A stretch of 64,000 bases of DNA from Podarcis gaigeae (Eukaryota): NCBI GenBank assembly GCA_964106915.2, contig OZ066916.1; one strand, written 5' to 3'. The translations under genes were made by a program, and so were the position numbers. Shown piece by piece: positions 3,868-63,330 of this stretch (the stretch's first letter is position 1; each line of letters opens with the position of its first letter). Under the pieces are notes generated by a model. That model was not told the origin of the DNA and searched no databases. It saw only the letters and a program-made list of their open reading frames with translations.

Positions 3868-4125
3868 GAGAGCCAGTGTGGTGTAGTGGTTAAGAGCGGT
3901 AGTCTTGTAATCTGGGGAACCGGGTTCGAATCTCTGCTCCTCCACATGCAGCTGCTGGGTGACCTTGGGCCAGTCACACTTTTTTGAAGTCTCTCAGCCC
4001 CACTCACCTCACAGAGTGTTTGTTGTGGGGGAGGAAAGGAAAGGAGAATGTTAGCCGCTTTGAGACTCCTGAAGGGGAGTGAAAGGCGGGATATCAAATC
4101 CGAACTCCTCTTCTTCTTCTTCTTC
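3868..4125 (+). mobile_element. Squam3-type tRNA-derived SINE
   Basis: A box TGGTGTAGTGG, B box GGTTCGAATC, (CTT)n tail; homologous to 47439-47749 and 53180-53410. Confidence 0.85.
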
Positions 4126-4515: not shown

Positions 4516-5142
4516 TAAGGTGTGACGGGAAAGTTCTGTGAATTTCACAGAAATTGGACAGAGAGAAATATTTGAACACATATACCTTGCAGGCCTTCAA
4601 AGGAGGCCCCCTCTGATACAATGTACTGTGGACAACGTTTGTAGAACTGTTGGAAACTTCTGAGAAGTCCTCTTTTCATATTGCTTTCAGTTCCCTTGGA
4701 CATGTGAAATGTTGGAAAATCTGTGCCCTTTCAGTGCAAATTTCAGTTTTGGAAAAAGAAAGAAATCCGGTGGGGCCAGATCGGATGAATGTGGAAGGTG
4801 GGACAACTCAGTAACCTCAGTAACGATTCCGCGCGGAATATGCAATTCTTCCGCCATCATTCGGTCGGACAAATGCCGATCCTGCATCAATAACTCACAA
4901 ATTCTGTCGACATTTGCCACCATTCTGCTCGTCGATGATCTGCCAGAGCAAAGGTCATCTTTGATGGTTTGCCGCCCTTCATGGAAATGCTTAAACCACT
5001 CATACACTGTCTTTCGAGTTACAGATTCATCTCCGTACACATGTGTGAGCATTTTGTGGGTTTCCAATGCCAGTTGTTTGTTCGAATATTTCCCGCTGTC
5101 CGATTTCTGTGACCATGCACCAAACTTTCTGGTCACATCTTA
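4516..5142 (-). mobile_element. Internally deleted mariner transposon (transposase relic)
   Basis: ORF 4687-5136 has the mariner HTH (VYGDESVTRKTVYEWFKHF...SGRSSTS) fused to HSSDLAPPDFFLFPKLK. Imperfect ~20-bp TIRs TAAGGTGTGACGGGAAAGTT / TAAGATGTGACCAGAAAGTT; TA TSD. Confidence 0.92.
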
Positions 5143-10142: not shown

Positions 10143-11219
10143 CTGTGGACCATATGTGGTTTTCCCTCAAATTGCTAGGGTTCTTGCTAGTTCCACACAG
10201 TGGGTAGCAAGCTATTGCCCAAACATTTCATTCTGGGATGTATAGAATTAAAGGCTGAGGTGGGCCACAATCCAGGTCTCCCTGTCTCTGCTCCAATGCC
10301 CTAGTGACTGGGCCAGAGTAGGATTTTTGTAAAATGTTCCGCGATTGGTGAGAGCATTTGCTCAAAGCCACTTACGATCCTCTTTAGCAGAGTGCACACA
10401 CAGGCCATTGATCGCCAACTCCTGCTTGTTCCGCAGCCGCCTCTGTACCCAAGTAAATATTTATCTTGGCATTTGCCCCATTTGTTTACCAACCATTCAC
10501 CAGCTGGAGAGCTTGGGGGAAATTAATTGGGTTACATAAAGATGCTGTTTATTATTTGACAGCCTTCTTCGGACTGACCCTTGTAGACGGCGGCTTTGAA
10601 AACATTGCCAGATGAAAACACACATGATCTTCCAGGGGAGAGTTAGTTTAGAGAGCAAATGCATATGGGAAACATAAGAAGCCTTGTGTGTGCATCTGTG
10701 AGCTGCACTGAGCCAGAGTGTCTCCTCAAAGGAGCATGTGCCAACTGTTAATACATATGTTTCAAGATATTACCCCAAATGCACATTGTCAAATGACAAA
10801 CCAAACTTATATCCCAGTGCTTTCATCTCTATTAAGAGTGTGGTCCTATGCTTGTTGACTCGGAAGGCTGCTTCAATGTGTTCAATGGGATTTACTCCAA
10901 GGTAAATTAGTTAAATGGACCTACCTTGGGCTACATTTACACTGTACATTTAAAGCACTATGATGCTACTATAAGCAGTCATGGCTTCCCCCAAAGACTT
11001 CTGGGAGCTGTAGTTTGTTAAGGGCTGAACACAGCTGGTCTCACTTTTGTGTAAACAAGCATAGGCTTGCACTGTTAGCGTTGAATGAAACTCTGTTATT
11101 CACTTACATTGGTGGATGGGGGGGGCAATAAGGAGGACTGGAATGAACCCATTTCTACTTATTTATATGACAGTGGTACTGCTGTTGTGATTCACTTTGC
11201 ATCATGCTGTGACCCAGTA

Positions 11220-11450
11220 CAGTGGTACCTCGGGTTACAGTCGCTTCAGGTCACAGACGTTTCAGGTTACAGACTCCGCTAACCCGGAAGTAGTATCTCG
11301 GGTTAAGAACTTTGCTTCAGGATGAGAACAGAAATTGTGCGGCGGCAGCGGGAGGCCCCATTAGCTAAAGTGGTACCTCAGGTTAAGAACAGTTTCAGGT
11401 TAAGAACGGACCTCCAGAATGAATTAAGTTCTTAACCCGAGGTACCACTG
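11220..11450. mobile_element. Tc1/pogo (Tigger-like) MITE
   Basis: TIRs CAGTGGTACCTCGGGTTA / TAACCCGAGGTACCACTG; TA TSD; seven copies in this window. Confidence 0.93.
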
Positions 11451-13304
11451 TACTGGGTCCTCCTGACTCACCAGCAGAAGACCAGTGAGCTAGACAATCA
11501 TCTGGATTTCCTTTTTCACGTAGGACTCAATAGCCTACAAGGCCTCATCTATGATTTAAAGAGGCTTCATTTTTGTTTATTTAATTTTCCTGCACTTGTA
11601 GTCAAGCAACTGGTCAAATGAAGGTCAGCATCCTCCACATGAAGTCAGAAATTTCACTATGGTTTCCATATGCCTCTCCTCTGGTTCCCATGAAACCATC
11701 AGAAAGTTAAACCATTTGGTTTCCTTCTTCTATCTCTGGGCAAAGAAAAGAAAAATGGTTTCAGACTAGCTCTTTCTCTCCTGTCACGTGGTTAGTCACA
11801 ATCCAATGAGAATTGACATTCCACACTGAGATGCCACCCTGGTTTCTGACAGGATCCCAACAGCTTTCTTGCTTAAAGGCTGGTAGCGTCAGAGTGCCCC
11901 GTGAAGGGGATCCTTTTGGACAGCCTGATTCTGTGTTAGTCCTGTTCTTAACGAAAAGCAAAAAGTCAGAAACAATCTGATTCTGCCTGATTTTTTTTAA
12001 AGAAACCTCTCTATTGTCAAGTTCTTTTTCTTGTTAATTATCTCTTGGAGGCTGAGCAATTATTTACACAGAAAAGCAAGTTTCAGCCAAACAACCCCCA
12101 CTCTCCTCCCCTGTCCCACTTTATTATCAACATCCTCTTTGTGTTGCTTTCTTTTGTACTTTCTCCCCCATCCCTCTGCACCTTCTGTCTTGTCTCTTAG
12201 TTATGCGTTACTTTCTAAAAGCCAACATCAATATTTCTCTCTGTAGACATTCACAATTAGGGAATTTTTATAGCCGAGCAGGGGGGCATCGGCAATTCGA
12301 GATATTGTGTTCTCTTTCTTCCCCTAAAGCTGCTTTGTGGGTTTGGAGGAAACTCCTTCGAAGCAGCTCTCCACACTTTGGGGTGCTTTGTAGGTTGTTG
12401 CTGTGTGTTTTTGTTGTTGTGCAAGTGGATCCTCATTAGTTTGTTTCTGCATGCTGAATCCCCGGCGGCTGCTTTGAAGACATGTTAATTATAGTAATAA
12501 TTTCCAAGTCATTTACTAGTCGTTGCCAATTTTCTTACAGGAGGGGAGAGGGAAGCTAGGACTTGTCCAAACCACTCCGTCTTGAACAGAAATGCCTTGA
12601 GAGCTGGATATTTTTATTTTCTTGTAATTTATTTATTTGCTCCAGTGATAGTTGCCAGAAGTGATTTTTCCTCACTCTCAAGGCCTTTTCTAAGATGCTG
12701 CTTGATCCAAACTGTACTAATCATCTCCCCCTGCCTCCTCCCCACTCCCAATTTTGAGAACGGGGGAATAAGGGAAATTAACCATCAGCAGGAGTGTATG
12801 AAAGCTGTAAGTCCTGTTAGATGGAACATATTCATTTACTGCCGGCTAAATACATCATGATTATATGCAAGCTCACGGTCTCCGAATTCTAACCTCTGAG
12901 CTTGTGAACATAAGATGGCTCACTGTGGTTATTGGAACAAGAACTGCCTGTCTCAAAGGCCCGACTTGCTGAGGTGTAGGCGACTTTCTGTGTGGCACTC
13001 CGTTCCCACCAGGCTAGCAGAGCCAATTCTTGGTGAATCAAGCACATGGCCAAATGTCCTCAAAAGCAGACAAAGAGCTAGTTCTTTGCGTGACAGTTTG
13101 CATCGGATATTTGAGGGCACGTTCACTGCGAAAGGAATGGGAACGTTGTTCCCTTCGAAATTCACCAAAGGCTGAACTGGGCTGGCATATGATGATTTCA
13201 CCAATTCATATCTCCAAATCTTGGCATTCGTGGTGAAAGTCACCACATATCTATCCATTAAGGAGCAAAGTTATTGTTGTACTCATATGGGTATTAGTCC
13301 TAGC

Positions 13305-14990: not shown

Positions 14991-16529
14991 AGGCGGTTCC
15001 AGCCTAATCAAAGCCTTAGTGCAATATTTCCACAAGCCCATTTTCTCATTGTTAAGCACATATTTTTTGCTCCATGAGTGTAAAAAAATAATGGAGAGAA
15101 GGGAGATGCTTTATTCCCAGTAACATCAGAAGGGTCTTCCCCCACCTAACATCTCCTTAGCATCTGAGCCTTCTGCTTTGATTGTTAACATGAGCTGCTT
15201 TAATTAATATCTTAAATATAATTAACTATGGGGGGTTCAGTAGCAGATTTATCACCACAATCAACCTTCGGGCTTTATTTTATCTATAATATCTGAGACA
15301 GGAACAATCATGTCAAGCACATGACGGCTTTTCTGAAAGCCCTCAAGGCAGAGTGAACTTTGAATGGTATTTCTATTTGCTGGAGTTCCCCGAGATTTTC
15401 AAGTGAGAAGATCCAGGGCTTCTTTCGGTTTGGCAACTTCTAGTTTCCACCAGCTGAAGCATCTCATTGGATCCAATAAACAATAACAGTCAGAACATTA
15501 ATCCAATAGAAGGAGACAGAGCTTGAGAACTTCCCATGGGTGAGCAGGGAGGACATATTAGGGAGACAAGACTTTGATATTACACAGAGCTGGAACTTAA
15601 TAGAATGGCTCTGTTTGATTTATATTTACTACCCAAGCTGAAGAGTTAAAGACCACCAGCAATACAGTCCTTACAATGGCATTGCGCAGAAAGTTGTACT
15701 CTAGCATAACTCCCCGGACAGTGACATTATGTGGACACTGCAAAGTTTTTACATGTGATGTGATGCAAACCATCAAATGTTTGCTTTTGAATTAAGCAGG
15801 CATTGTGAGACAAGAGCTCCCTCAGATGTAAACGATCCTCAGGGACATTATCTTGTTTTAGGAACAATTCTGGGCCTGTCTGACAGCTAAATAAACTCAA
15901 ATATAACTAGTATTCAAAGCTCTGAACTGTTCCAGTGAGCATGTAGACCTTCGTGAGGCATGGGAGAGTTCCCTGCTTGATCAGGATTGAAGTTAGACTC
16001 TGGTAGAAATGTGGGTTGCTAATTCTAATGTGTTGAAACGGATGAAGTGTTTTAAATATGATTTATTGTGATTTATTGTTGCATTTTATGAATGATTTTA
16101 TTTTTTTGGAAGATGGGATAGAATTTCAATAAAATAAATAATTTTGTCGGAATTCCCCAACATCTCTACAAAGAGCAAATACTTTCAAGTGAATGAAGGG
16201 AAAGCACAAGAAGTGACATGATCTGCCGGGGTTATCAGCACAATGGGACTCCCATTTATTTAATGAGACTTGTGTGGGGATGTTTCACCTGAAGAGAATC
16301 ACACTTAGAAGTTTAGTGCAGTAAAACATTTGCCTGTAAATCAATGGGAATAGCTACTAGGTCTGTTGTGACCCCCTAATTGGCATGAACTTATAATTTC
16401 CCCCTTACAGCGTTCTATCAACACCTTATTTTTATTTTTATTTTACATCTATATCACTTGCATGGGCAAGCAACATCTAAATACATCTCTCTGGCATGCA
16501 TTGTGACTTACCACCCTTGTAAAGGAGTA

Positions 16530-16741
16530 CAGTGGTACCTCCGGTTAAGTACTTAATTCGTTCTGGAGGTCCGTACTTAACCTGAAACTGCTCTTAACCT
16601 GAAGAACCACTTTAGCTAATGGGGCCTCCTGCTGCTGCCGCACCGCCGGAGCACGATTTCTGTTCTCATCCTGAAGTAAAGTTCTTAACCTGAAGCACTA
16701 TTTCTGGGTTAACGGAGTGTGTAACCTGAAGCGTATGTAAC
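16530..16741. mobile_element. Tigger-like MITE, right TIR deleted
   Basis: TA then CAGTGGTACCTC start; homologous to 38041-38282. Confidence 0.9.
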
Positions 16742-29771: not shown

Positions 29772-30478
29772 GCTCAGCGGCCTCAGGGGAGGCCACCACC
29801 ACCACCAGTGCCAATCAATCAATCAATCTCAACCCTCTCTTCTGCCTCTTACTTCCTGGCTCCCTCAACAAGTGATTGATGTCAGAGCAAATGGCATTCA
29901 CCATCTATTTGTGCACTGAATGGGCACAATTCTCCACTGCACCCAAGAATCTTTGGATTGGGGCAATTACTTGGAAACAAGCCCCCGTGATATCTGTAGC
30001 ACTGATATCCAAATATGCGCGTTTCAGATCGAAGCCTACAGTGACAATCCTTTGCAAATTCTCCAGGGATTGCAGCTCAGCGGCATGCTTTCTAAATGTA
30101 CATGCTTTGGCTCACACTGTGAACATGAAGTCAGAAGCATTAAAAACGCTATAATAAAGGCATGACAAATGACTGTGCTAACAGTATGTATCGATAATGG
30201 CATGTATTAATGAGAGGGTTGCTCCATTTCCCTTTTCATCAGGTTGTCAGCTCAGGAGAGAATTTCTTTTATCCATCTGATGGCATTTCCCCCGCCGACA
30301 CTGATGTCTAAAATCATGCACTCAGTCTGATTGTTACTTTGGCTCAAGCATTTAGCCCAATAGCCGCAGTGACCTTTTGGAAGTCTAAAAACATATAGAA
30401 ATGTACAAAAAAAATTAAAGCACCACAGAGCTGGAAAAATACAGGGTATGGAGCTATGTGACCCAGGGACCCAAGGTA

Positions 30479-30719
30479 CAGTGGTACCTTGGGTTAAGAA
30501 CTTAATTTGTTCTAGAGGCCCGTTCTTAACCTGAAACTGCTCTTAACCTGAGGTACCACTTTAGCTAATGGGGCCTCCCATTGCTGCCATGCCGCTGCGG
30601 CAAGATTTCTGTTCTCATCCTGAAGCAAAGTTCTTAACCTGAGGTAATATTTCTGAGTTAGTGGAGTCTGTAACTAAAGTGTCTGTAACCTGAAGTGTCT
30701 GTAACCTGAGGTACCACTG
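30479..30719. mobile_element. Tigger-like MITE
   Basis: CAGTGGTACC...GGTACCACTG with TA TSD. Confidence 0.92.
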
Positions 30720-33621: not shown

Positions 33622-34422
33622 TTGACTTCCAGTCATAATGCCACTACCGAGCTTCAGGAGGAGGTGGGGTTGCGGGCTCTCGACCCCCCCCACACACACT
33701 CCCGCGGGGCTGGCGTCAGCCTCGTGGGAAGCAGGGATTCCCCTTGTTTCGCATCACCGCGCACCAGCCAATCGGCTGGCGGCAGGGGCGGGCCTTCTAG
33801 AGTCCACTTAAGGTCGGGGCAGCCCTTGGCTCGCCCCTTTTCTCTCTTACAGCTGACGCGGTTTCCCACCCACCCACCCCTTAGGTTTGCCATCGACATT
33901 GCTATGGGCTTCGGCTGGTTGCCGCAAGGGGCCAGGTAGGAATTTTTCCATTTGGCTAATTGGCTGGTTTTTGGAGCCACTTGGTTTTTTCGCCTACCTC
34001 GTAGCAAATTGTCACAACTTCCTCGGTTTTGGCGGTAGGCATTGGCCGGGGTATTGTCATGCAAATGAGATCGGGGGGGAGGAGCGCCATCACCTCCCCC
34101 AAGCTTGAAGGGTAGTTCGTTAAAGGACTCCGAGGGGCGACGCCTCGTCCGGAACCTACGGAGGCTAGGGCCTAAAGCGCGTCCCCGAGCGGTAACCCCT
34201 CGGGGAGCGCCTAGGGATATGCATCTCGGGTAGCTCCCCCTGTTGGTGTTTAACCCTTCCCGGTTAGACCGGATAGTCGGTTAGGGGCCAATGCCTAAAG
34301 CCAATACCTCTCTTACCTGTAATCAATAAAGTTGTGGCCATTTTCACCCATTAACCTAAATACTTGTGTCCGGTGTCTTCATTCATTCCACCTGTGGGGG
34401 GGGGGAGGGAATAGCCACGCAA
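33622..34422 (+). mobile_element. Ngaro/DIRS-like (tyrosine-recombinase retroelement) terminal repeat unit
   Basis: CpG-rich, no TSD, AATAAAGTTGTGGCC motif and CACGCAA end shared with 44697-45560 and 56557-56952. Class assignment from recall; left boundary uncertain. Confidence 0.65.
33766..33812 (+). promoter_or_regulatory. Retroelement promoter: CCAAT box, GC box, TATA-like
   Basis: AGCCAATCGG (33766-33775), GGGGCGGGCC (33785-33794) and CTTAAG (~33807) in canonical order. Confidence 0.5.
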
Positions 34423-36920: not shown

Positions 36921-38040
36921 TACATTTTATATTCATTATTATACTTCAAATATTATATGAATATCATAAGTTTATGAGTATACTTATACCATAAGTATAT
37001 AATGTTTGATCGTATCAGTATTTTTAATTGATCTTTTATATTGTTTTATGCAAATCCTTAGAGGCTTTCATTGATTAACCAGGATTTAAATCCCATCAAA
37101 ATAAATTGAAAGGCAGACCCAGGCCTGCTTAGCTTCAATAAACAGATAGCTTTATGTGCCTTTAGAGCATACTCTGCATTAGTATAAGGGCACAAAAGAA
37201 GGAAGATGTATGCTACCCTCAGTTATTGGAAGGAAGGGTGTGTTATAAATGCAATAAATAATAACTGGATCAGTGATCCAGGTAGTCCACCATCTTGTTT
37301 CCAGCAATGGTCCACAAGCAAGGCGTTAAGTCAATGTTCTCCCCTGTCGTTTGTCCCCTGCACCTGCTATTCAGAGATGTTGTGTGTCTTGACATGAAGG
37401 TTTCACTCAGCCCACAGGCTGAGAGCTTTTGAAAGTAATAATTTCTGCTTCAGTATAGCTGTTCCAGGAACCAGCCGTGACTTCTAGGACTGGGCCTGGA
37501 GTCCATAAAAATGATTGCCGCTGATTATCCAAGAGGCAAATAAAAGCAATATGCACCCGATTCCCACCATTTCAGACATAAAAGCATGACAACATTCTTG
37601 TTTTCTGTGCGACTGGTCACTGGGCGTATTTCGATCTGCCTGGAGAAGTAAATTACCATTCCCGAACAGAATCGTTTCCGGGCATCCTGTTTTACATTTC
37701 TTTAATGCTTCATTACAAACAAAATCAATGTAGCGTGAATAAACAGGCAGGGGCTGTACCTCCCTTTGCTAGCTGCTGATACACATCTGTAGATGGCTTA
37801 GACTTTGATTAGAGTCAGCCCAACTGTAAGCTGTGACTTCTTTCATGGCAACGGCTGCCTGGAATTGCACGTGTATAATGTACTATAAAGGGGCCAAGCC
37901 GAAACTGGAAGTGATTGTAAGATATATCCCACATTGAAAAGTCCATGTGCTTGGGTTTTTCAAGGCTGCATATATGTTCGTATTTTTAATGAATTGTAGG
38001 GTGTGGTAAGATAAACCCTATTATATTGGCATTTGCAATA

Positions 38041-38282
38041 CAGTGGTACCTCGGGTTAAGTACTTAATTCGTTCCGGAGGTCCGTTCTTAACCTGAAACT
38101 GTCCTTAACCTGAAGCACCACTTTAGCTAATGGGGCCTCCTGCTGCCGCCGTGCTGCCGGAGCACGATTTCTGTTCTCATCCTGAAGCAAAGTTCTTAAC
38201 CTGAAGCACTATTTCTGGGTTAGCGGAGTCTGTAACCTGAAGTGTGTGTAACCTGAAGCATATGTAACCTGAGATACCACTG
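38041..38282. mobile_element. Tigger-like MITE
   Basis: Full TIRs with TA TSD. Confidence 0.93.
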
Positions 38283-41782: not shown

Positions 41783-42024
41783 CAGTGGTACCTCGGGTTA
41801 CATACACTTCAGGTTACATACGCTTCAGGTTACAGACTCCGCTAACCCAGAAATAATACTTCGGGTTAAGAACTTTGCTTCAGGATGAGAACAGAAATCG
41901 TGCGCCAGTGGCATGGCGGCAGCAGGAGGACCCATTAGCTAAAGTGGTGCTTCAGGTTAAGAACAGTTTCAGGTTCAGAACGGACCTCCAGAATGAATTA
42001 AGTACTTAACCCGAGGTACCACTG
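41783..42024. mobile_element. Tigger-like MITE
   Basis: Full TIRs with TA TSD. Confidence 0.93.
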
Positions 42025-42258
42025 TATTAGGAGCAATGCGCATGGAAAAAATGGGCAACTTTATCCAAACACGGAAAAAGAAATAGGGTGAAGTGAACAA
42101 CTGAGAGCAACCAGTGTTGGGAGAGATATTCTCCTCTACCTTACTAATGCATCTGGTTGTCCATCGTGGGAAATAGACACTGGATTGAATGCCCCGTTCA
42201 CCTGATCATTCATCTGGGCCCTCCTTAAGGGTTTACACTAACCAAGATGGAAAGATAC

Positions 42259-43018
42259 TGTCAGAGCCACCCGAGGTCCCAGCTCACAAGAGACCAAAAT
42301 CCAGTCCAAGTTATATACAAAAGGTTTTATTGAAGAACATTGTTGTCGTTACATCCAAGCTCCGTGGCTCAGCATCTGTTACCCTTAGATGATTGAAGTC
42401 CCCTCTGAGTCAGTCCCGCCCCTGCACCAGCTTAAGAGGCTTGTACTGCTCCACCTTTTCCTCTCCTTCCTTTTCCGCAGGGTCTTCCTGCCCCCCTGTG
42501 CTCCCTCCCTTCGGGACTCCCCCGAGGCTGAGTCTTCTGACGCCTGCTCCCCCCTCCTTCGTGCTTTGGGACCAGGCTCCTCCTCAGGGCTCTCCTCATT
42601 TCCGCGCGCCTCCACATTTGAACTTGGCGCGCGTACGTTGCCTCTGACCTTCCTTTCGACCGTTACGCTACTCTCGGTACTACACTCCTCCCCTTCCGGC
42701 AGGACATTCTGCTCCGAACTCCTTCCCCTCTCTGCTCCCTGTTCTGCTCCTTCTGACACACTGGTAACTCCACCCCCTTCACTCCGTTCCGACGGAGAGG
42801 CCGGTCCCGATCTCCAACCCCCACTGGGGATTCCCTCTTCGTTCTCCTGCTTCTGACTGCTTCCCTCTCTACTGCCCCTTGGCCTGACCAGGGGGGCTCC
42901 CTTTTGGGAATCCTCGGATTCACTTGACGGACTCACTGACAACCTCGGGTCATCGTCGTCCTCTTCCTCGTCACCCTGGGACCCCTCCCCCTCGCTCTCT
43001 GTCCCTGAAACCCTGACA
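42259..43018 (-). mobile_element. Young Gypsy-type solo LTR (760 bp) with an open reading frame
   Basis: TGTCAG...CTGACA termini; perfect 5-bp TSD GATAC; minus-strand AATAAA near 42326-42331; CpGs intact. Confidence 0.92.
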
Positions 43019-47399: not shown

Positions 47400-48037
47400 T
47401 GTCAGGGACACGCCCAGCAGAGAGGAATTGGCTGCACCAGAAGAAGAAGAAGAAGAAGAAGAAGAAGAAGAAGAAGAAGAAGAAGAAGAAGAAGAAGAGT
47501 AGTAGTAGTAGTAGTAGTAGTTTGGATTTGATTTCCCGCTTTATCACTACCCGAAGGAGTCTTAAAGCATCTAACATTCTCCTTTCCCTTCCTCCCCCAC
47601 AACAAACACTCTGTGAGGTGAGTGAGGCTGAGAGACTTCAGAGAAGGGTGACTGGCCCTAGGTCACCCAGCAACTGCATGTGGAGGAGCAGAGACGCGAA
47701 CCCAGTTCACCAGATTACGAGTCTACCGCTCTTAACCACTACACCACACCTGAGTCTCCAACTTTAGAGGAGGAGGAATTGGCTGCACCTGAGTCGCCAA
47801 GAAGTAGGAGGCAGAGCAAGCGATTAGAGCAGAGGCGGTCCAGCAGGAGGCGGGGAAGGATGTGGCGTATATCTGGCCTTGGGAGAGGTCAGAAGCCAGT
47901 CAAGTCAACTGACTCTGACGGTGAAGGATGTGTTGTGGAAACTTGGACTGCTGTAAACCTGATATTGAGAAATAAACCTCAGCTACTTAAACTGCCAGCA
48001 TTCCATGTCTTGTGTGGGAGAAGCGCTAAACCTGACA
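47400..48037 (+). mobile_element. Gypsy-type solo LTR containing a Squam3 insertion
   Basis: TGTCAGG...CCTGACA termini; perfect 5-bp TSD GGCCA; AATAAA near 47970. Confidence 0.9.
47439..47749 (-). mobile_element. Squam3-type SINE with expanded (ACT)n(CTT)n tail
   Basis: Reverse complement of the family at 3868-4125. Confidence 0.9.
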
Positions 48038-53179: not shown

Positions 53180-53410
53180 TTGTAGTGGTTAAGAGTGGTG
53201 GACTCTTAATATGGTGAATCGGGTTCGCGTCCCCGCTCCTCCACATGCAGCTGCTGGGTGACCTTGGGCTAGTCACACTTCTCTGAAGTCTCTCAGCCTC
53301 ACATCACAGAGTGTTTGTTGGGGGGGGGGGAAGGAGATTGTTAGCCGCTTTGGGACTCCTTAGGATAGTAATAAAGCAGGATATCAAATCCAAACTCTTC
53401 TTCTTATTAT
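53180..53410 (+). mobile_element. Squam3-type SINE inside a hAT element
   Basis: Homologous to 3868-4125. Confidence 0.85.
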
Positions 53411-54177: not shown

Positions 54178-54393
54178 GAGGGTTACAAACGCTTCAGGTT
54201 ACAGACTCTGCTAACCTGGAAGTAGTACCTCGGGTTAAGAACTTTACTTCAGGATGAGAACAGAAATCAAACAGCAGCGGCGTGGCAGCAGTGGGCAGCC
54301 CTATTAGCTAAAGTGGTACCTCAGGTTAAGAACAGTTTCAGGTTAAGAACAGACCTCCGGAACAAATTAAGTTCTTAACCAGAGGTACCACTG
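54178..54393. mobile_element. Tigger-like MITE, left TIR lost
   Basis: Ends GAGGTACCACTG followed by TA. Confidence 0.9.
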
Positions 54394-56556
54394 TACATAC
54401 CTAGTTCGCTTCAGCATCTGTTTCTAATGATTTTTATAAAACAAGTCTCTCCATGGGGGAGGGTTTAATATATTGTGAGCTTTTAGTCACAAAATGCCCT
54501 AAGAGTTAAGGAGGGTACGCCTTCCCCCAAATGCACTATCTGAATTTTGTGTGGTCAGTTGGAGCCATGGCAAGAAGATTACAGCCATCTTTATGTGGTA
54601 AGCCATTGTCATCCTTTCTGGCAGAAACGCAAGGAAACTTGAGAAAGTGCCTAAATCATGCCCAAAGCTTGTGAAGGAGAGACTATTTAGACAGATGCTT
54701 CAGGATACGCTGGGCCTGTGAAACAGATACAGGCTTCTAATGATAGTGGAGGGCTCTTTGGACTGTAGAACGTCCAATGATGTAAAACACCACTCTCTCG
54801 ACACGTCATTACCACATTAAATAATGGAATGCAGCACAAAGGATAGCTCCCCTGCCCCCCAGCATATTTGGCCTCGGAGGTGCAGGATAATTCTCTGTAA
54901 TTTCCCCTCCTCCAAAGCATACAAATGTGTGAACATCCGTGGCACAAACAGAAGGCTAAAATTGCCCGCCGGCAGCCAGCTATGCCAACCAGGAAAGTAT
55001 GCCTTAAGCTGCCGAGTCGTAATTGTGTTTCTCTCTTGATGAAAGCTTTGAAAACATCTTATGTAACTTGTAAGTTTAAAAAGACGAAATAATTACAGTA
55101 ATCAGAACATCGAGGGCTGGGCCAAGGCTCAGCAGAGGGTTACGGAGGAGTTGCGCAAGGCAAGCAGAGATCAGCAACGGTTTGGACTTCTGGGAACTGA
55201 CAACCATCTTGGTGAACCTCCAGAAACTCACACTGGGCCTTTCTTTGCATTGTCCCATTATTCTGCATCAAAGACTTTGCAAATCCTGAGCACGGCCCTC
55301 CAAGCCTCTCCATCTGGCCCTTTAGTCTCTCCCCCGGCCACATCCGGCTTCCCAGCCATGCCCCTGCTTTGCACCCACCTTGAGTGTTTTTGGCTGGCTG
55401 GAATGTGTCCTTGAGCTCTGATCATTTCCTTTCCTTGGATGGGTCATACAAAGGGCTGTGTAAGTGCCTGCAGGAACTAGCCCGATGTACATAAGATTTG
55501 TCTCCATTGCCCCACCCACTGCTGCCTCTGCTGCTGCCCACCTCTGACATGTGGCCCCCAGAAGGTTGCACAGACAAGAATAAAAAGTTTTCCCACCCAG
55601 TTTAACCACTGTATCAAAGCTGCATCAATGACTTTGCCAAATTTCTCATTTGCCTTTCCTTTGGCCTCATCTAGGGATGGACAAATCGATGAATATCAGT
55701 TCCTCTCTGTTTCTCATTTTTCCACACTTAAGTTCAGTTTGCTCATTTCCAAATCAGTTTGTGAACTGATTCTTTCCACCAAAAGTCCTTGTGAAACTTT
55801 CTGCTTGCTTTTGTGTTGCAGTTTTCTGAATAGGTACTTTTTATGCAAGTACCAACTTTCCCTACCACTATACCTTTCTTTACATTATTTTCAACTCATG
55901 TAGGCAATTTTCTTCACACATTTCCCCAATGCGTGCTTTTTTGTGTGTGCACAAATCTTGGTTGGATTGCATCACAAAAAAATGGCAAAATGTGGATTTT
56001 GAACAATAGCCATGTTTCAGTTTTTGTAGAGCTTGTGTAATGCAAACTGCACTAATGTCTCCTCCATTTCTAGCCTAATCATGAAGTGTTGATTTTTTTA
56101 AAAAAAAATCTCCTTCATTCTTAGCAAAAGTAGTTGGATAAGGAGATACACAACCCTGCCCATTTATTTCTACATACATTTCTGCCTTTCCACACACTGG
56201 CATCTTAGGCTAACAATAGTCATCCGCAGATGTGAATAAACAATTTTTGAGGTTCTCATCTAAATAATTATTGTGTAACTTATATTATTATTGTCCCTAA
56301 TTTTGGCTTAGCTTCACGTCATCTTCCCCATCTATTTTAGCATCACAATGCAAAACCATTGTGTTGCAGCAATTGTTCAACTGCCTGTGCTGAATAATAG
56401 CTGGCGCAATCAGCAGCTACGCCCCTTTCACACATCTGACAATAATACTCTCAAACATGTTCTGTTTCTGGATCACTTTGCCACAGCAGCAAATATGTGG
56501 GATTTGCAGAAGAAATGGGAAACAAAGGGTATTAGCATCATTCTCGGTGCTAGGGA

Positions 56557-56952
56557 ATGTGTGGCGGTTAGGCATTGGGTAAGCCTTTCTTTAATGGGGG
56601 GGAGGTTGTAGCCTCCACCTGCCCCTGTTAAAGGGATCCGGGGTGTGGATCCTGTCCGAAGCCCAGACATGGACTAGGGCCATGCCATGACCCCAATGGG
56701 GTTGCCTCGGGCCGCACCTATTCAACGTAAGACATAGGGCTCCCCCTCTTTGGTGGTTTACCCTTATTTTTACTCTCTGCAGACAAGCGGGAGTTTCACC
56801 CAATGCCTGATTTCACCCAATGCCTAAGCCTAAGCCACTCACATCTGTAACCAATAAAGTTGTGGCCTGTTTTAGCCCATAAACCTAAATGCTCGTGTCT
56901 GTGTGTTTATTAACCAATAGGGAACTGTGGAGCATGGGGCCTTGACACGCAA
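56557..56952 (+). mobile_element. Ngaro/DIRS-like terminal repeat, 5' truncated
   Basis: TGGCGGTTAGGCATTGG...CCAATGCCTAA...AATAAAGTTGTGGCC...CACGCAA. Confidence 0.65.
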
Positions 56953-60201: not shown

Positions 60202-62557
60202 ATGGTCACGGGGTGTCCAAAGTGCTGAGTTATCCTTATAACAACAATGGACATTGAACCAGTATGATTCAACTAAATACAACATCGCCATCTGTGCATG
60301 ATGCAAGATCCGTGCCAAAATAAATAAATAAATTGGGTCCAGCTCTGCTGTCAGGCAGAGTGAGGTGGCTGCTCAAGGAGGCTGTAGGTGCCATGTAACC
60401 TGCCCTGCACCCCATATACCCTAGCCTGCTGCTGCTCGGTGGAGCAGGCTACCATCTGGGTAAAGACCTATGTATTTGGTGTTTGTCAACCAGCTCTTCC
60501 ACCCCTCCAGATATTACTGATTGCTTATCCACTGACTTCACTATTTTGGTGGTGCTGTTGTCGAATGCTGGTTAGTCCATAAAAAGACCAGGTTCATTCA
60601 TGACTTGACCATGAGTGAAGGGGCTGGTCTGGTCTGTATTATGGAAACTTCAGTGGGTGGGTGACCTAACTTAGCTCTGCCAGTCTAGGTTTTTGGTACA
60701 ATACCAGGCTATACTGGGCAGTCAAGGTGTGGTGTTGCTATTATCCATAGAAGCACCATCTCCTTTACTGTCTTGGGACAGGCTTGGAGGATCGGTACCT
60801 GATGTGGGGCCAGACTGAGGATGCTGCTGGTCTGTTGACCAGCCTGTTTGCTTGCAACATCCCTGACTGAGCTGGATGGACCAAAGATAGGGGGTGCAAT
60901 GCACTCACCCCCTTGTCATTGTTGGACTGTTTCCTGTTGAAGTTTGGACTAGTGGCAGAAATTTCCCCCTTTAACGGTAGTGGGTTCAGTGGTTCTCAAA
61001 GTCCTCTCCACATAATTTGTAAATTACTCAAAGCTCTGTTGCATGGGTGTCCCAGTGGTTGCACTCCAAAAGGAGCCATTACTTTGCCTGTTGTCCAAGC
61101 AAGCCCCTGGTGCACACTGACTGGCAGTGGATCACTTGGGTTTCTCTCCCAGCCCTACCTGGTGATGCTATGGATTAAAGCTGGGACCTTCTGCATTGTC
61201 TGCCTCCAAGAGGGCATCTTCTCCCACTGCTGCTGGAACTACTGGCCTTGGCATCTCCAGTGGAAAAATGACCAGGACCATCTCTTTGGTGGAAACAGCA
61301 CACGCAGCATCATTTTCTGCTGGTGGTGCTCAATCTGGTAGCTCCACTTTCAGTCCTAGTCCCTTGGTGGGGAAGACGCTCCACTGTGGAGCTGGGAGTG
61401 CCCACCTTTTCCTGCGCCTGCACCATGGTGAATTTCAATCAAAGGCATTTGTCATCCTGATAATGCGCATTAACATTCAAGGAGGGGTGTTTGCCTAAAT
61501 GAGCGCCACTTTGAGGACCTTCCGAAATCCAAGCATGGTTTTTAAGTCTATGGTTGCAAACTATCCCCTATTGAATGTAATGTCTTGAGCTATATATCCC
61601 TGTGGAGATGACAATTCTGCAACCCCGACTCCTGTAATGTTATTTTTCTCTTACTACAGAGTTGCCTAAAGAGTTACTCACCCCTTTCATATTACCTCAT
61701 CCAAGGCATTCAACCAATTATTGCACAACTTTTCTCCTTGCAGCCTAAGATAAGCTAGACCAGCAAGACCAGAAAATTTAAAGCGACTGCTATTTCTTAG
61801 GGCCATGATCATGCTCCCTGACTTTTAATTTGTCTTTTTTTTTTTACAATTTTTTTTTTACAATTTTAATCTGACAATTTTATCTGCTTAGTCATGTTTA
61901 TACAGGTTTGTACTTTGCATACAAATTGGAAAGGCTGGTGGCTGACGCAAATACATGTTGCTTGTATTTTGTTTTGTTTTGTTTTATCCATAAGCTTTTT
62001 TAATTGATCTGCACCATAAGGTCTTTGGGGGAGGTCACAATAATATAATCATACAGTTATATAAAAAGAGGTAAAACAGCAGCAATCATAAAACCAGTGC
62101 AACCATTCCAACCAGAACAGAATAGTATAGATTCCCTTTAACAAAGTTAAGAAATCAGCAGGTGAAGCTTTTCATGACATATTTCAGAGTAGCCAACATG
62201 GTGCTCTGCAAAGGTTGTTGCACTACAGCTGCCATAATCCCTGGCCATTGCCCATGCTGGCTGGGACAGATGGGAATTGTAGTTTCACAACTGGAGGTCA
62301 CTGCGCTGGCTATCCCTGATACGGAACTGAACACTGTCATCTGCTAAGGGTTGCAGGCCAAGGGACTGCTCTTCAGCCACTCTACTTCCAGTTTTTAATT
62401 CTCAATCCTTAACTCTCACATTGAAGCCAAGTTAATTCACAACTTAGTTTAGCTTCCTGCATTGCAGGGGGTTGGACTAGATTGGACCTCAGGGTCTCTT
62501 CCAATTCTACAATTAGATGATTCTATGAATTTGTTCACCAGGGCCTACTTCTCAGTA

Positions 62558-62764
62558 CAGTGGTACCTCTGGTTACATATTTAATTCATTCCGGAGGTCC
62601 GTTCTTAGCCTGAAACTGTTCTTAACCTGAAGCACCACTTTAGCTGCCGCGCCTCCGGAGCCCAATTTCTGTTCTCATCCTGAAGCAAAGTTCTTAACCC
62701 GAGGTACTATTTCTGGGTTAGTGGAGTCTGTAACCTGAAGCGTATGTAACCCGAGGTATCACCG
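62558..62764. mobile_element. Tigger-like MITE with internal deletion
   Basis: TIRs with TA TSD. Confidence 0.9.
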
Positions 62765-63330
62765 TAGCAGTGTTTAGGATTGCAGCTTTATTTTTTAATC
62801 TTCTGTCCGTATACTAAGCGTCATTATGTCACCCTGGGAGATATGAATTCCTACTGCTAACTGATTAAATTTGGATTTGGATGCATGCAGACAATTCCTA
62901 TAGCATACAAATTAAGTCAGACAAGGCCATGTGCAAGCTCAAGCACTCCTCTGATTATAAATGGGTCCCATATGCCTTGCAGTGTCTAACACACCATTCA
63001 TTTTCTTAATCGATCACATTCAGATATGGTATCATTGTCTACACAAATACGTATCTACAGAGGAAAAAGAATCCGGGTACAGATGAGTTAAATTAGCTGC
63101 AAGACAACATCGGTCTGTGAAACAAAAACAGGTGCTTGTCTTTGAAAAATGGTGCTGAACTGAGGAATTAAGGAATAAAAGTGTGGGATTGTGCTATACC
63201 TTATGTTTCTTTACTCAGAAGGCAGTCTCTCTGCGTTCAGTGAGCCCAAGGCTGTGGTTCTATGCATGTGTACCTGGAAGTAAATCCCGCTCACTTCAAT
63301 GAAACTTACTCCTGAGTAGACAATCCTAGG

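Follow-up and report, generated by a model that had tools for sequence, protein, structure and literature searches.

The long terminal repeats (LTRs) of vertebrate Ty3/gypsy elements are usually taken to be non-coding, and their divergence is read as a neutral clock or as promoter evolution. A solo LTR in the window (the whole 64,000-nucleotide stretch of Podarcis gaigeae DNA analysed here) questions this view, as it contains no stop codon for 210 codons from its second base onwards and its frame ends in ...RWSSTSLLSWCRGGTDSEGTSII*. The original prediction was that translation of Pol in full elements may carry on in this phase beyond the PPT and into U3, thereby adding a disordered acidic tail with an NLS-like basic cluster to the integrase. 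We therefore asked whether the U3 of this lineage is coding sequence, and if so, what the encoded tail might do.

Two solo LTRs and their open frames

The features of the two LTRs are collected in Table 1. Both elements, LTR1 and the more divergent LTR2, were confirmed as genuine solo LTRs by their terminal TG..CA and 5-bp duplications. LTR1 belongs to family A, which is a young, high-copy family of Tf1/sushi-type chromoviruses of the lizard. A first look at the 1.5 Gb genome gave 1141 candidate copies, and all 40 that were scored matched LTR1 over its full length at 99–100% identity. The two other sense frames of the same stretch contained 3 and 10 stops. Dinucleotide shuffles of the stretch contained 5.1 stops on average, with 78 of 20,000 stop-free in the flagged frame and 220 of 20,000 stop-free in any sense frame. 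Since stop-free shuffles are this rare (0.4% for the flagged frame), purine-rich composition alone, the explanation raised against the original prediction, is an unlikely source of the open frame. A 155-codon antisense frame with an ATG start also lies inside LTR1 (window 42389-42853, plus strand). It had no match in a Pfam search and, having its third positions in common with the sense frame, is probably a shadow of the latter.

Table 1. Features of the two solo LTRs and copies of a repeat family in the window (positions of the window)
Feature	Position	Strand	Remarks
Solo LTR1 (family A)	42259..43018	-	760 bp, TG..CA, 5-bp duplication GATAC
210-codon frame, U3 and start of R	42388..43017	-	Open frame, purifying selection
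Basic cluster, bipartite-NLS-like pattern, codons 169-185	42463..42513	-	Within codons 151-190, omega 0.07-0.17; putative function
TTAA-CTGG TATA-like box, encodes L-S-W	42427..42435	-	Begins 29 nt before predicted +1; putative promoter role
11-nt predicted self-primer of LTR1	42396..42406	-	Co-varies with PBS in families A, B, D, E, F2
Stop codon of LTR1 frame	42385..42387	-	19 nt past predicted +1
AATAAA polyadenylation signal of LTR1	42326..42331	-	Sequence
Solo LTR2 (older family F2)	47400..48037	+	LTR of 326 bp with an insert, TG..CA ends, GGCCA duplicated
Insert in LTR2, (AAG)n(AGT)n microsatellite and SINE-like repeat	47439..47750	.	312 bp; inverted copies 3876-4070, 53181-53302
TATAT-CTGG TATA-like box of LTR2	47868..47876	+	Reads I-S-G, not W; putative role
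F2 predicted self-primer position in LTR2	47898..47908	+	One mismatch against PBS of a family 5' LTR
MITE-like copies	16528-16741, 30477-30690, 38039-38252, 41812-42026, 54181-54395, 62553-62766, 11218-11455

LTR2 belongs to the older family F2, the copies of which are 81–93% identical to one another. The in-phase peptide reported for LTR2 after removal of the insert was correct, with the two pieces (the left 39 nt and the right from 47751) translated separately and their common phase obtained by arithmetic. The frame end was right as to the peptide but not as to a stop: a TGA follows DGEG in 28 of 31 F2 family rows and is absent in the LTR2 copy. Counted from LTR base 2, the distance to the stop of the family was divisible by three in 21 of 26 F2 copies, one duplicate, two truncated starts and two SINE inserts having been left out of the 31 rows. 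The five recurrent length classes (180, 195, 234, 357, 363) were all in frame, which triplet-like GAG/GAA runs alone could favour.

The window also holds a MITE-like repeat family of 215–250 bp with seven copies, one of them 230 bp from LTR1, and a two-copy repeat with AATAAA (34298-34354 and 56826-56882) that may end another LTR family. A GC-rich open stretch of 208 codons lies at 33657-34280 (minus strand), and a 150-codon stretch at 4690-5139 (minus strand) presumably resembles the N-terminus of a mariner transposase.

Reading frame from pol into the 3' LTR of full elements

A solo LTR has lost its internal region, and the course of pol can only be followed in full elements. Six LTR pairs of family A enclosed elements of ~6.0–6.5 kb with 0–2 inter-LTR differences and 5-bp duplications. 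Their gag has 377 codons and a CCHC motif (CX2CX4HX4C), pol overlaps gag in the -1 frame, and GGGAAAC was present within the overlap region in four of the five copies scanned; pol is presumably made through a -1 frameshift from gag. Pfam identified the gag capsid, RT, RNase H, integrase and a Tf2-type SH3 domain in these frames, and the best solved relative in the PDB was Ty3 Gag-Pol (E 3.5e-127).

The flagged frame, which holds the RT, RNase H, integrase and SH3 matches of Pfam, was open across the PPT/LTR junction in all six elements (…G-G-M-D/V-R…, the slash marking the junction). Upstream of the junction it stayed open for at least 900 codons in three of them, and the others had a frameshift 105 or 342 codons upstream. 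The absence of an ATG near the LTR start, stated in the original prediction, held for the solo LTRs but not for full elements of the LTR1 lineage, in which an ATG lies in the PPT, 5 bases upstream of the LTR (M-D/V). A DNA search with LTR1 gave 30 loci that were not chosen by frame (12 solos, seven 5' LTRs and 11 3' LTRs), and the 210 codons were kept in every one. Seven of the 11 unselected 3' LTRs were open for the whole 500 codons covered upstream, while four lost the frame 105–342 codons upstream.

The same junction was found in subfamilies B, C1, C2 and C3, with tails of 207–210 codons; identity between A and the B/C subfamilies was 85% in the integrase and ~50–55% in the tail. Podarcis database proteins bear the same tails. 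Family D, the integrase of which is 56% identical, reads through to a tail of 100–102 codons, and tail and chromodomain had a common frame in 25 of the 28 loci having a chromodomain upstream, among 30 loci picked with an in-frame query. In family E, three of eight junctions were in frame; a stop or a shift at the PPT broke the frame in the remaining five, of which four were near-identical. Read-through of Pol into U3 in the flagged phase was thus borne out for full elements of the LTR1 lineage but not for the LTR2 family, in which none of the three decayed internal remnants with a readable PPT/LTR junction was in frame. Read-through almost certainly occurs in active A, B, C and D elements, and the same design was likely ancestral in F2.

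The elements carry the hallmarks of Ty3/gypsy elements (Metaviridae), namely TG..CA LTRs, a short duplication, and gag followed by PR-RT-RH-IN. A chromodomain, typical of chromoviruses, was detected above the Pfam cut-off in D (Chromo, 46 bits) and E (38 bits). In A (16 bits) and B (21 bits) it fell below the cut-off and was degenerate but alignable, with omega ~0.05–0.13. By consensus, we take the A/B/C chromodomain (L033:5303-5500, L129:5354-5551) to be without the usual aromatic-cage residues. The LTR-complementary PBS, matching the predicted RNA 5' end, and a CCHC gag with pol in the -1 frame agree with the Tf1/sushi group. In an integrase tree of lizard families and database proteins, the lizard families, E and J among them, and an unnamed ENA protein formed one clade (support 98/99) apart from the fish and amphibian proteins.

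Twelve stretches chosen for their nearness to contig ends included two with family-A insertions inside (TTAGGG)n arrays (L199, G000:C15:3000-11500; L209, G000:C33:1-3500) and two with head-to-tail tandem elements sharing a common LTR (L202, L204). Of 42 matches of older internal regions, 23 lay on the contig G000:C32 (29.5 Mb, ~2% of the genome), many as duplicated copies; this contig is possibly a non-recombining sex chromosome.

Selection on the U3 frame and its overlap with a predicted promoter and primer

Purifying selection on a protein leaves a codon-dependent pattern of substitutions, which was sought in the U3 frame by pairwise maximum-likelihood omega between natural copies only, one per subfamily; the pairs share branches and are not independent. 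The loci L132, L135, L166, L167, L175, L176 and L178 (LTR boundaries wrongly called) and L136-138 and L161 (no LTR pair) stood outside this analysis. Omega of the U3 tail in the six subfamily pairs was 0.29, 0.53, 0.29, 0.22, 0.25 and 0.34, and was below 1 by likelihood-ratio test in all six (p 0.022 to 4e-9). All six pairs also had an excess of differences at third codon positions, a test that is independent of the substitution model. For comparison, omega was 0.07–0.15 in RT and 0.23–0.58 in the spacer that links the chromodomain to the PPT. Within the tail, constraint was strongest in codons 151–190 (0.07–0.17), where the basic cluster falls. Codons 1–150 gave 0.25–0.41 except in the pair B/C1 (0.76, p 0.44), and the last 17–20 codons, with few sites, 0.10–0.76. 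In the shifted sense frames of U3, NG86 omega was 1.14–2.85 and 0.70–1.17. Synonymous divergence was as great in U3 as in RT, or greater (for example 0.33 vs 0.19, 0.48 vs 0.37 and 0.23 vs 0.24), so that U3 is not conserved as DNA. The tail of family D had omega 0.12–0.27 in five of five pairs. Frame-blind alignments of A with B/C contained three gap clusters, all net multiples of three inside the frame, and gaps of 1–5 nt past its stop. This demonstrates that the U3 frame is under purifying selection in the LTR1 lineage and in family D.

Both checks put forward with the prediction, dN/dS and an indel bias towards multiples of three, therefore came out in favour of the LTR1 lineage, and dN/dS also in favour of family D, but F2 behaved differently. 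Its omega (0.55–1.35) was not significantly below 1 in any of six pairs, its shared variants had no third-position excess, and only its in-frame length classes bear on the indel bias. The missing codon signal in F2 is as expected if decay after insertion dominates, and equally if there is no selection. Alternative sense frames of 258–275 codons in subfamilies B/C (L160, L165, L168, L170, L171) overlap the integrase end or the spacer; no sign of selection was seen in these shifted frames.

The end of the frame coincides with sequences that the element probably needs as DNA or RNA. The PBS of the full elements is an 11-nt complement of their own LTR rather than a tested tRNA match, with a PBS offset of 2 in A, B, C1, C2 and D; an LTR-complementary PBS was also found for one of three E 5' LTRs and for five of eight F2 LTRs tested against one F2 PBS. 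The 11-mer co-varies between LTR and PBS, being AGAGGGGACTT in A/C, AGATGGAGCTT in B, ACTGACAGATT in D, AGACTCGGCAA in E and AGTCGAGTCAA in F2, and the F2 self-primer was first predicted from promoter spacing and then located behind a family 5' LTR. No chance match to the PBS 11-mer occurred among 4913 internal 11-mers. The minimum free energy fold pairs the self-primer with the PBS, at a stability no greater than that of shuffles (z -0.99). In Tf1/sushi self-priming the primer is described as the RNA 5' end (bioRxiv 10.1101/2022.12.06.519325), and +1 of family A is accordingly predicted at LTR nt 613, window 42406. With +1 at this position, the frame would span all of U3 and stop inside R. 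In every family examined, the stop lies 10–37 nt into R, past the predicted +1, and ~55–60 nt before AATAAA. The TTAA/TTAT-CTGG box 29 nt upstream of +1 encodes L-[S/N/C]-W in A–D, and its spacing to +1 is identical in A, B, C1, C2 and D.

The prediction had described a shared end, W-TDS[E/D]G, in the two LTRs. The motif is present in both, but it is not one aligned site and is looser than claimed. T-D-S ends at the predicted +1 in LTR1, follows it in D and begins at +11 in F2; TDSDG of LTR2 (47908-47922) starts on the last base of the predicted self-primer, and the W of F2 differs from that of the CTGG box. Positional homology of W-TDS between LTR1 and LTR2 was rejected, given these unlike places relative to +1. 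The alternative that TDSE is constrained as DNA through an AP-1 site proved partly right: the element's initiator and self-primer are the likelier cause, and AP-1 was rejected as a sufficient reason because TGACTCA is missing in subfamily B. Inside A/B/C, conservation of the end motif is inseparable from constraints on the promoter and the primer. A component at the protein level is likely as well, since E keeps F-F-H-C-W-K-K without a TATA-like box and similar ends occur in family J and in an unnamed ENA protein.

Anatomy, proposed role and relatives of the tail

The start of the tail is 17–20% acidic and its end basic, and the tail is rich in Ser/Gly with few hydrophobic residues. A common anatomy recurs in several lizard lineages, comprising an acidic Ser/Gly linker of varying length, a basic cluster, hydrophobic-x-W or -C-W, and a short acidic/Ser end. 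The tails of E, J and the unnamed ENA protein have a related basic-hydrophobic-C-W-K-acidic ending (I-F-C-W-K-R-K-E-S-E-G-S-S in J and L-L-C-W-K-R-R-V-T-E-D-S-S in the ENA protein). Family J (L119, G000:C32:20203386-20206757) has a 114-codon in-phase LTR frame that is basic just before this ending. Cross-family homology of the tails is by motif only, as MAFFT put the D/E tail ends against the middle of the A/B/C tail. A bipartite-NLS-like pattern was found in all eight tails tested but also in a fraction of 0.08–0.50 of their shuffled versions, and basic residues were clustered with p 0.0004–0.13. The strict K-K/R-x-K/R motif was not found in the A, B and C tails, and the tail matched no Pfam family. 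A single-sequence AlphaFold model from the chromodomain to the end had a mean pLDDT of 45, with the chromodomain itself unfolded, and is compatible with disorder at most. The tail is very probably functional as a protein; that its job is nuclear localisation or chromatin docking is about an even bet.

We propose that pol runs through the PPT and U3, stops early in R and gives the integrase a tail of 100–210 residues, the end of which would be a module for nuclear import or chromatin docking; we give this reading as a whole a probability of about 0.7. The genomic RNA would begin at the self-primer and gag would be translated first, with a fraction of ribosomes shifting into pol. These ribosomes would cross the integrase, the chromodomain, a spacer of 60–150 residues, the PPT with its Gly-rich codons and finally the 3' U3, and would end early in R, ~55 nt ahead of AATAAA. 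Gag-Pol is thus predicted to finish in a likely disordered tail, which may remain attached to the integrase. The acidic part could be a flexible spacer and the basic/W end the working part, with the conserved last 45–60 residues likely forming the import or docking module of the integration complex. The last ~20 codons would be doubly constrained, given their overlap with the self-primer and the core promoter. In a full element, the tail would be supplied by the 3' LTR alone, and the frame in solo LTR1 and LTR2 would be an untranslated relic.

Other explanations of the frame were weighed against this proposal. One alternative, which we consider unlikely, is that U3 holds an accessory gene of its own, in frame with pol by chance, whose product comes from an RNA that is spliced or started internally, or is released by protease. 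The ATG in the PPT of A, B and C has a good context right before the LTR, and a Podarcis gene model (P0049) begins at it. However, family D has GTG at this place and E no Met, the frame is continuous with the integrase in every lineage having intact junctions, and the internal spacer ahead of the PPT is likewise under purifying selection; release of the tail by proteolysis is nonetheless conceivable. Slightly less probable still is a jobless tail, arising by read-through from a stop-poor, purine-rich PPT and U3, with selection only for harmless hydrophilicity or for a pol stop near the poly(A) site, where the RNA escapes long-3'-UTR decay. Against it stand omega values in codons 151–190 that near those of RT, and the conservation of the terminal 35–45 residues among family D members that are ~50% identical elsewhere; moreover, the gag stop would end most ribosomes, and a late pol stop would be of little use against decay. 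A jobless tail would nevertheless account for the low complexity of the tails, their length of ~65–210 codons, their ~50% identity between A and B/C, the constant placing of the stop after the predicted +1 and ~60 nt ahead of AATAAA, and the short read-through that seems common in fish relatives.

The third explanation holds that frame and end motif are by-products of the promoter, AP-1, the self-primer and composition, with no protein-level selection. L-x-W and S-[ED]-G do overlie the TATA-like box and the self-primer, the latter co-varying with the PBS, and F2 is without a codon signal. Such DNA or RNA constraints cover only the last ~20 codons, whereas the rest of U3 has a third-position excess, omega below 1 and synonymous divergence equal to RT, in a frame that composition rarely leaves stop-free. 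The codon tests have largely refuted this explanation for families A–D already, and we consider it very improbable.

Retroviral genes that overlap U3 are known, namely lentiviral nef, MMTV sag and foamy-virus bel2/bet, each an accessory gene in its own right with expression from spliced RNA. They likewise make U3 both coding and promoter, whereas the lizard tail continues pol. The closest arrangement is that of the plant CRM group A, described as a polyprotein extending into the 3' LTR, the LTR coding for the CR targeting motif (PMC3059260, PMC3605345, PMC6317226); an ORF extension into the LTR is also given for Bingo1-4 and 7 (PMC3605345). The LTR1 lineage shares the polyprotein frame into the 3' LTR and has neither a CR motif instead of the chromodomain nor a tRNA-Met PBS. 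CRM elements, as described there, are plant elements primed by tRNA-Met in which the CR motif substitutes for the chromodomain, while the lizard elements keep a chromodomain upstream of the PPT, are predicted to be self-priming and carry a tail over all of U3. The resemblance is likely convergent.

The vertebrate Tf1/sushi V-clade (Sushi-ichi, Amn-san) is reported to have a CCHC Gag, pol in the -1 frame, the order PR-RT-RH-IN-chromodomain and a self-priming PBS (bioRxiv 10.1101/2022.12.06.519325, PMC6317226). The lizard elements have in common with it the CCHC Gag, the -1 pol, the domain order and the LTR-complementary PBS; their long LTR-encoded tail is unmentioned for Sushi-ichi and Amn-san in the accessible portions of these sources. 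The integrases of Ty1 and Ty3 are reported to have C-terminal NLS or targeting domains (PMC7459421, bioRxiv 10.1101/2021.07.27.453949), and offer a functional model of a flexible integrase C-terminus with a short basic import or tethering motif, although these domains are encoded in the internal region and the lizard tail in the LTR. Neither a review on extra ORFs of plant elements (PMC7264820) nor an LTR survey (PMC3601003) mentions such a case in its accessible parts. The arrangement itself is thus known from plant CRM and retroviral LTR genes, and the open-access literature yielded no account of a vertebrate chromovirus whose LTR encodes an integrase tail, though the overlap may already be noted in Butler et al. 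2001, Repbase, GyDB or supplements.

A profile search of 1.84 billion proteins matched the tail solely in Podarcis or unnamed records. A junction-like motif, G-G-x-V, followed the chromodomain in 21 of 149 new matches of the profile search, eight of which continue for 19–21 residues and then end, mostly in P-S-P-x-Y/F (P0063, P0081, P0083, P0085, P0087, P0103, P0104 and P0123, the last from the fish Labeo rohita). Fish database proteins often close in R-x-P-S-P-E-Y/F. These protein sequences suggest a short ancestral read-through that may have been expanded in squamates. In Rhineura floridana, one protein (P0157) has a chromodomain, G-D-S-V-M and then a 90-residue acidic-then-basic tail, hinting at the same design in amphisbaenians. 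A phospholipid-transporting ATPase model of Podarcis muralis (P0012, UniRef A0A670JKR6) ends in the last ~45 residues of a family-D LTR tail, which may mean that a solo LTR has been exonised or else that the gene model is an artefact.

In these lizard families, which are very young and high in copy number, protein constraint acts on most of U3. A vertebrate chromovirus thereby provides a candidate module for nuclear import or targeting that parallels the CR motif of plants, and a coding U3 would explain why host gene models take up such tails as last exons. By analogy with plant CRM, a doubtful but conceivable extension is that the whole of U3 encodes an integrase targeting domain with a basic-hydrophobic-W-acidic end that tethers the integration complex to chromatin, replacing in A/B/C the chromodomain without an aromatic cage and independently repeating the plant solution. 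If this were true, each of thousands of solo LTRs would be an exon ready in frame to supply a tag for chromatin or nuclear import.
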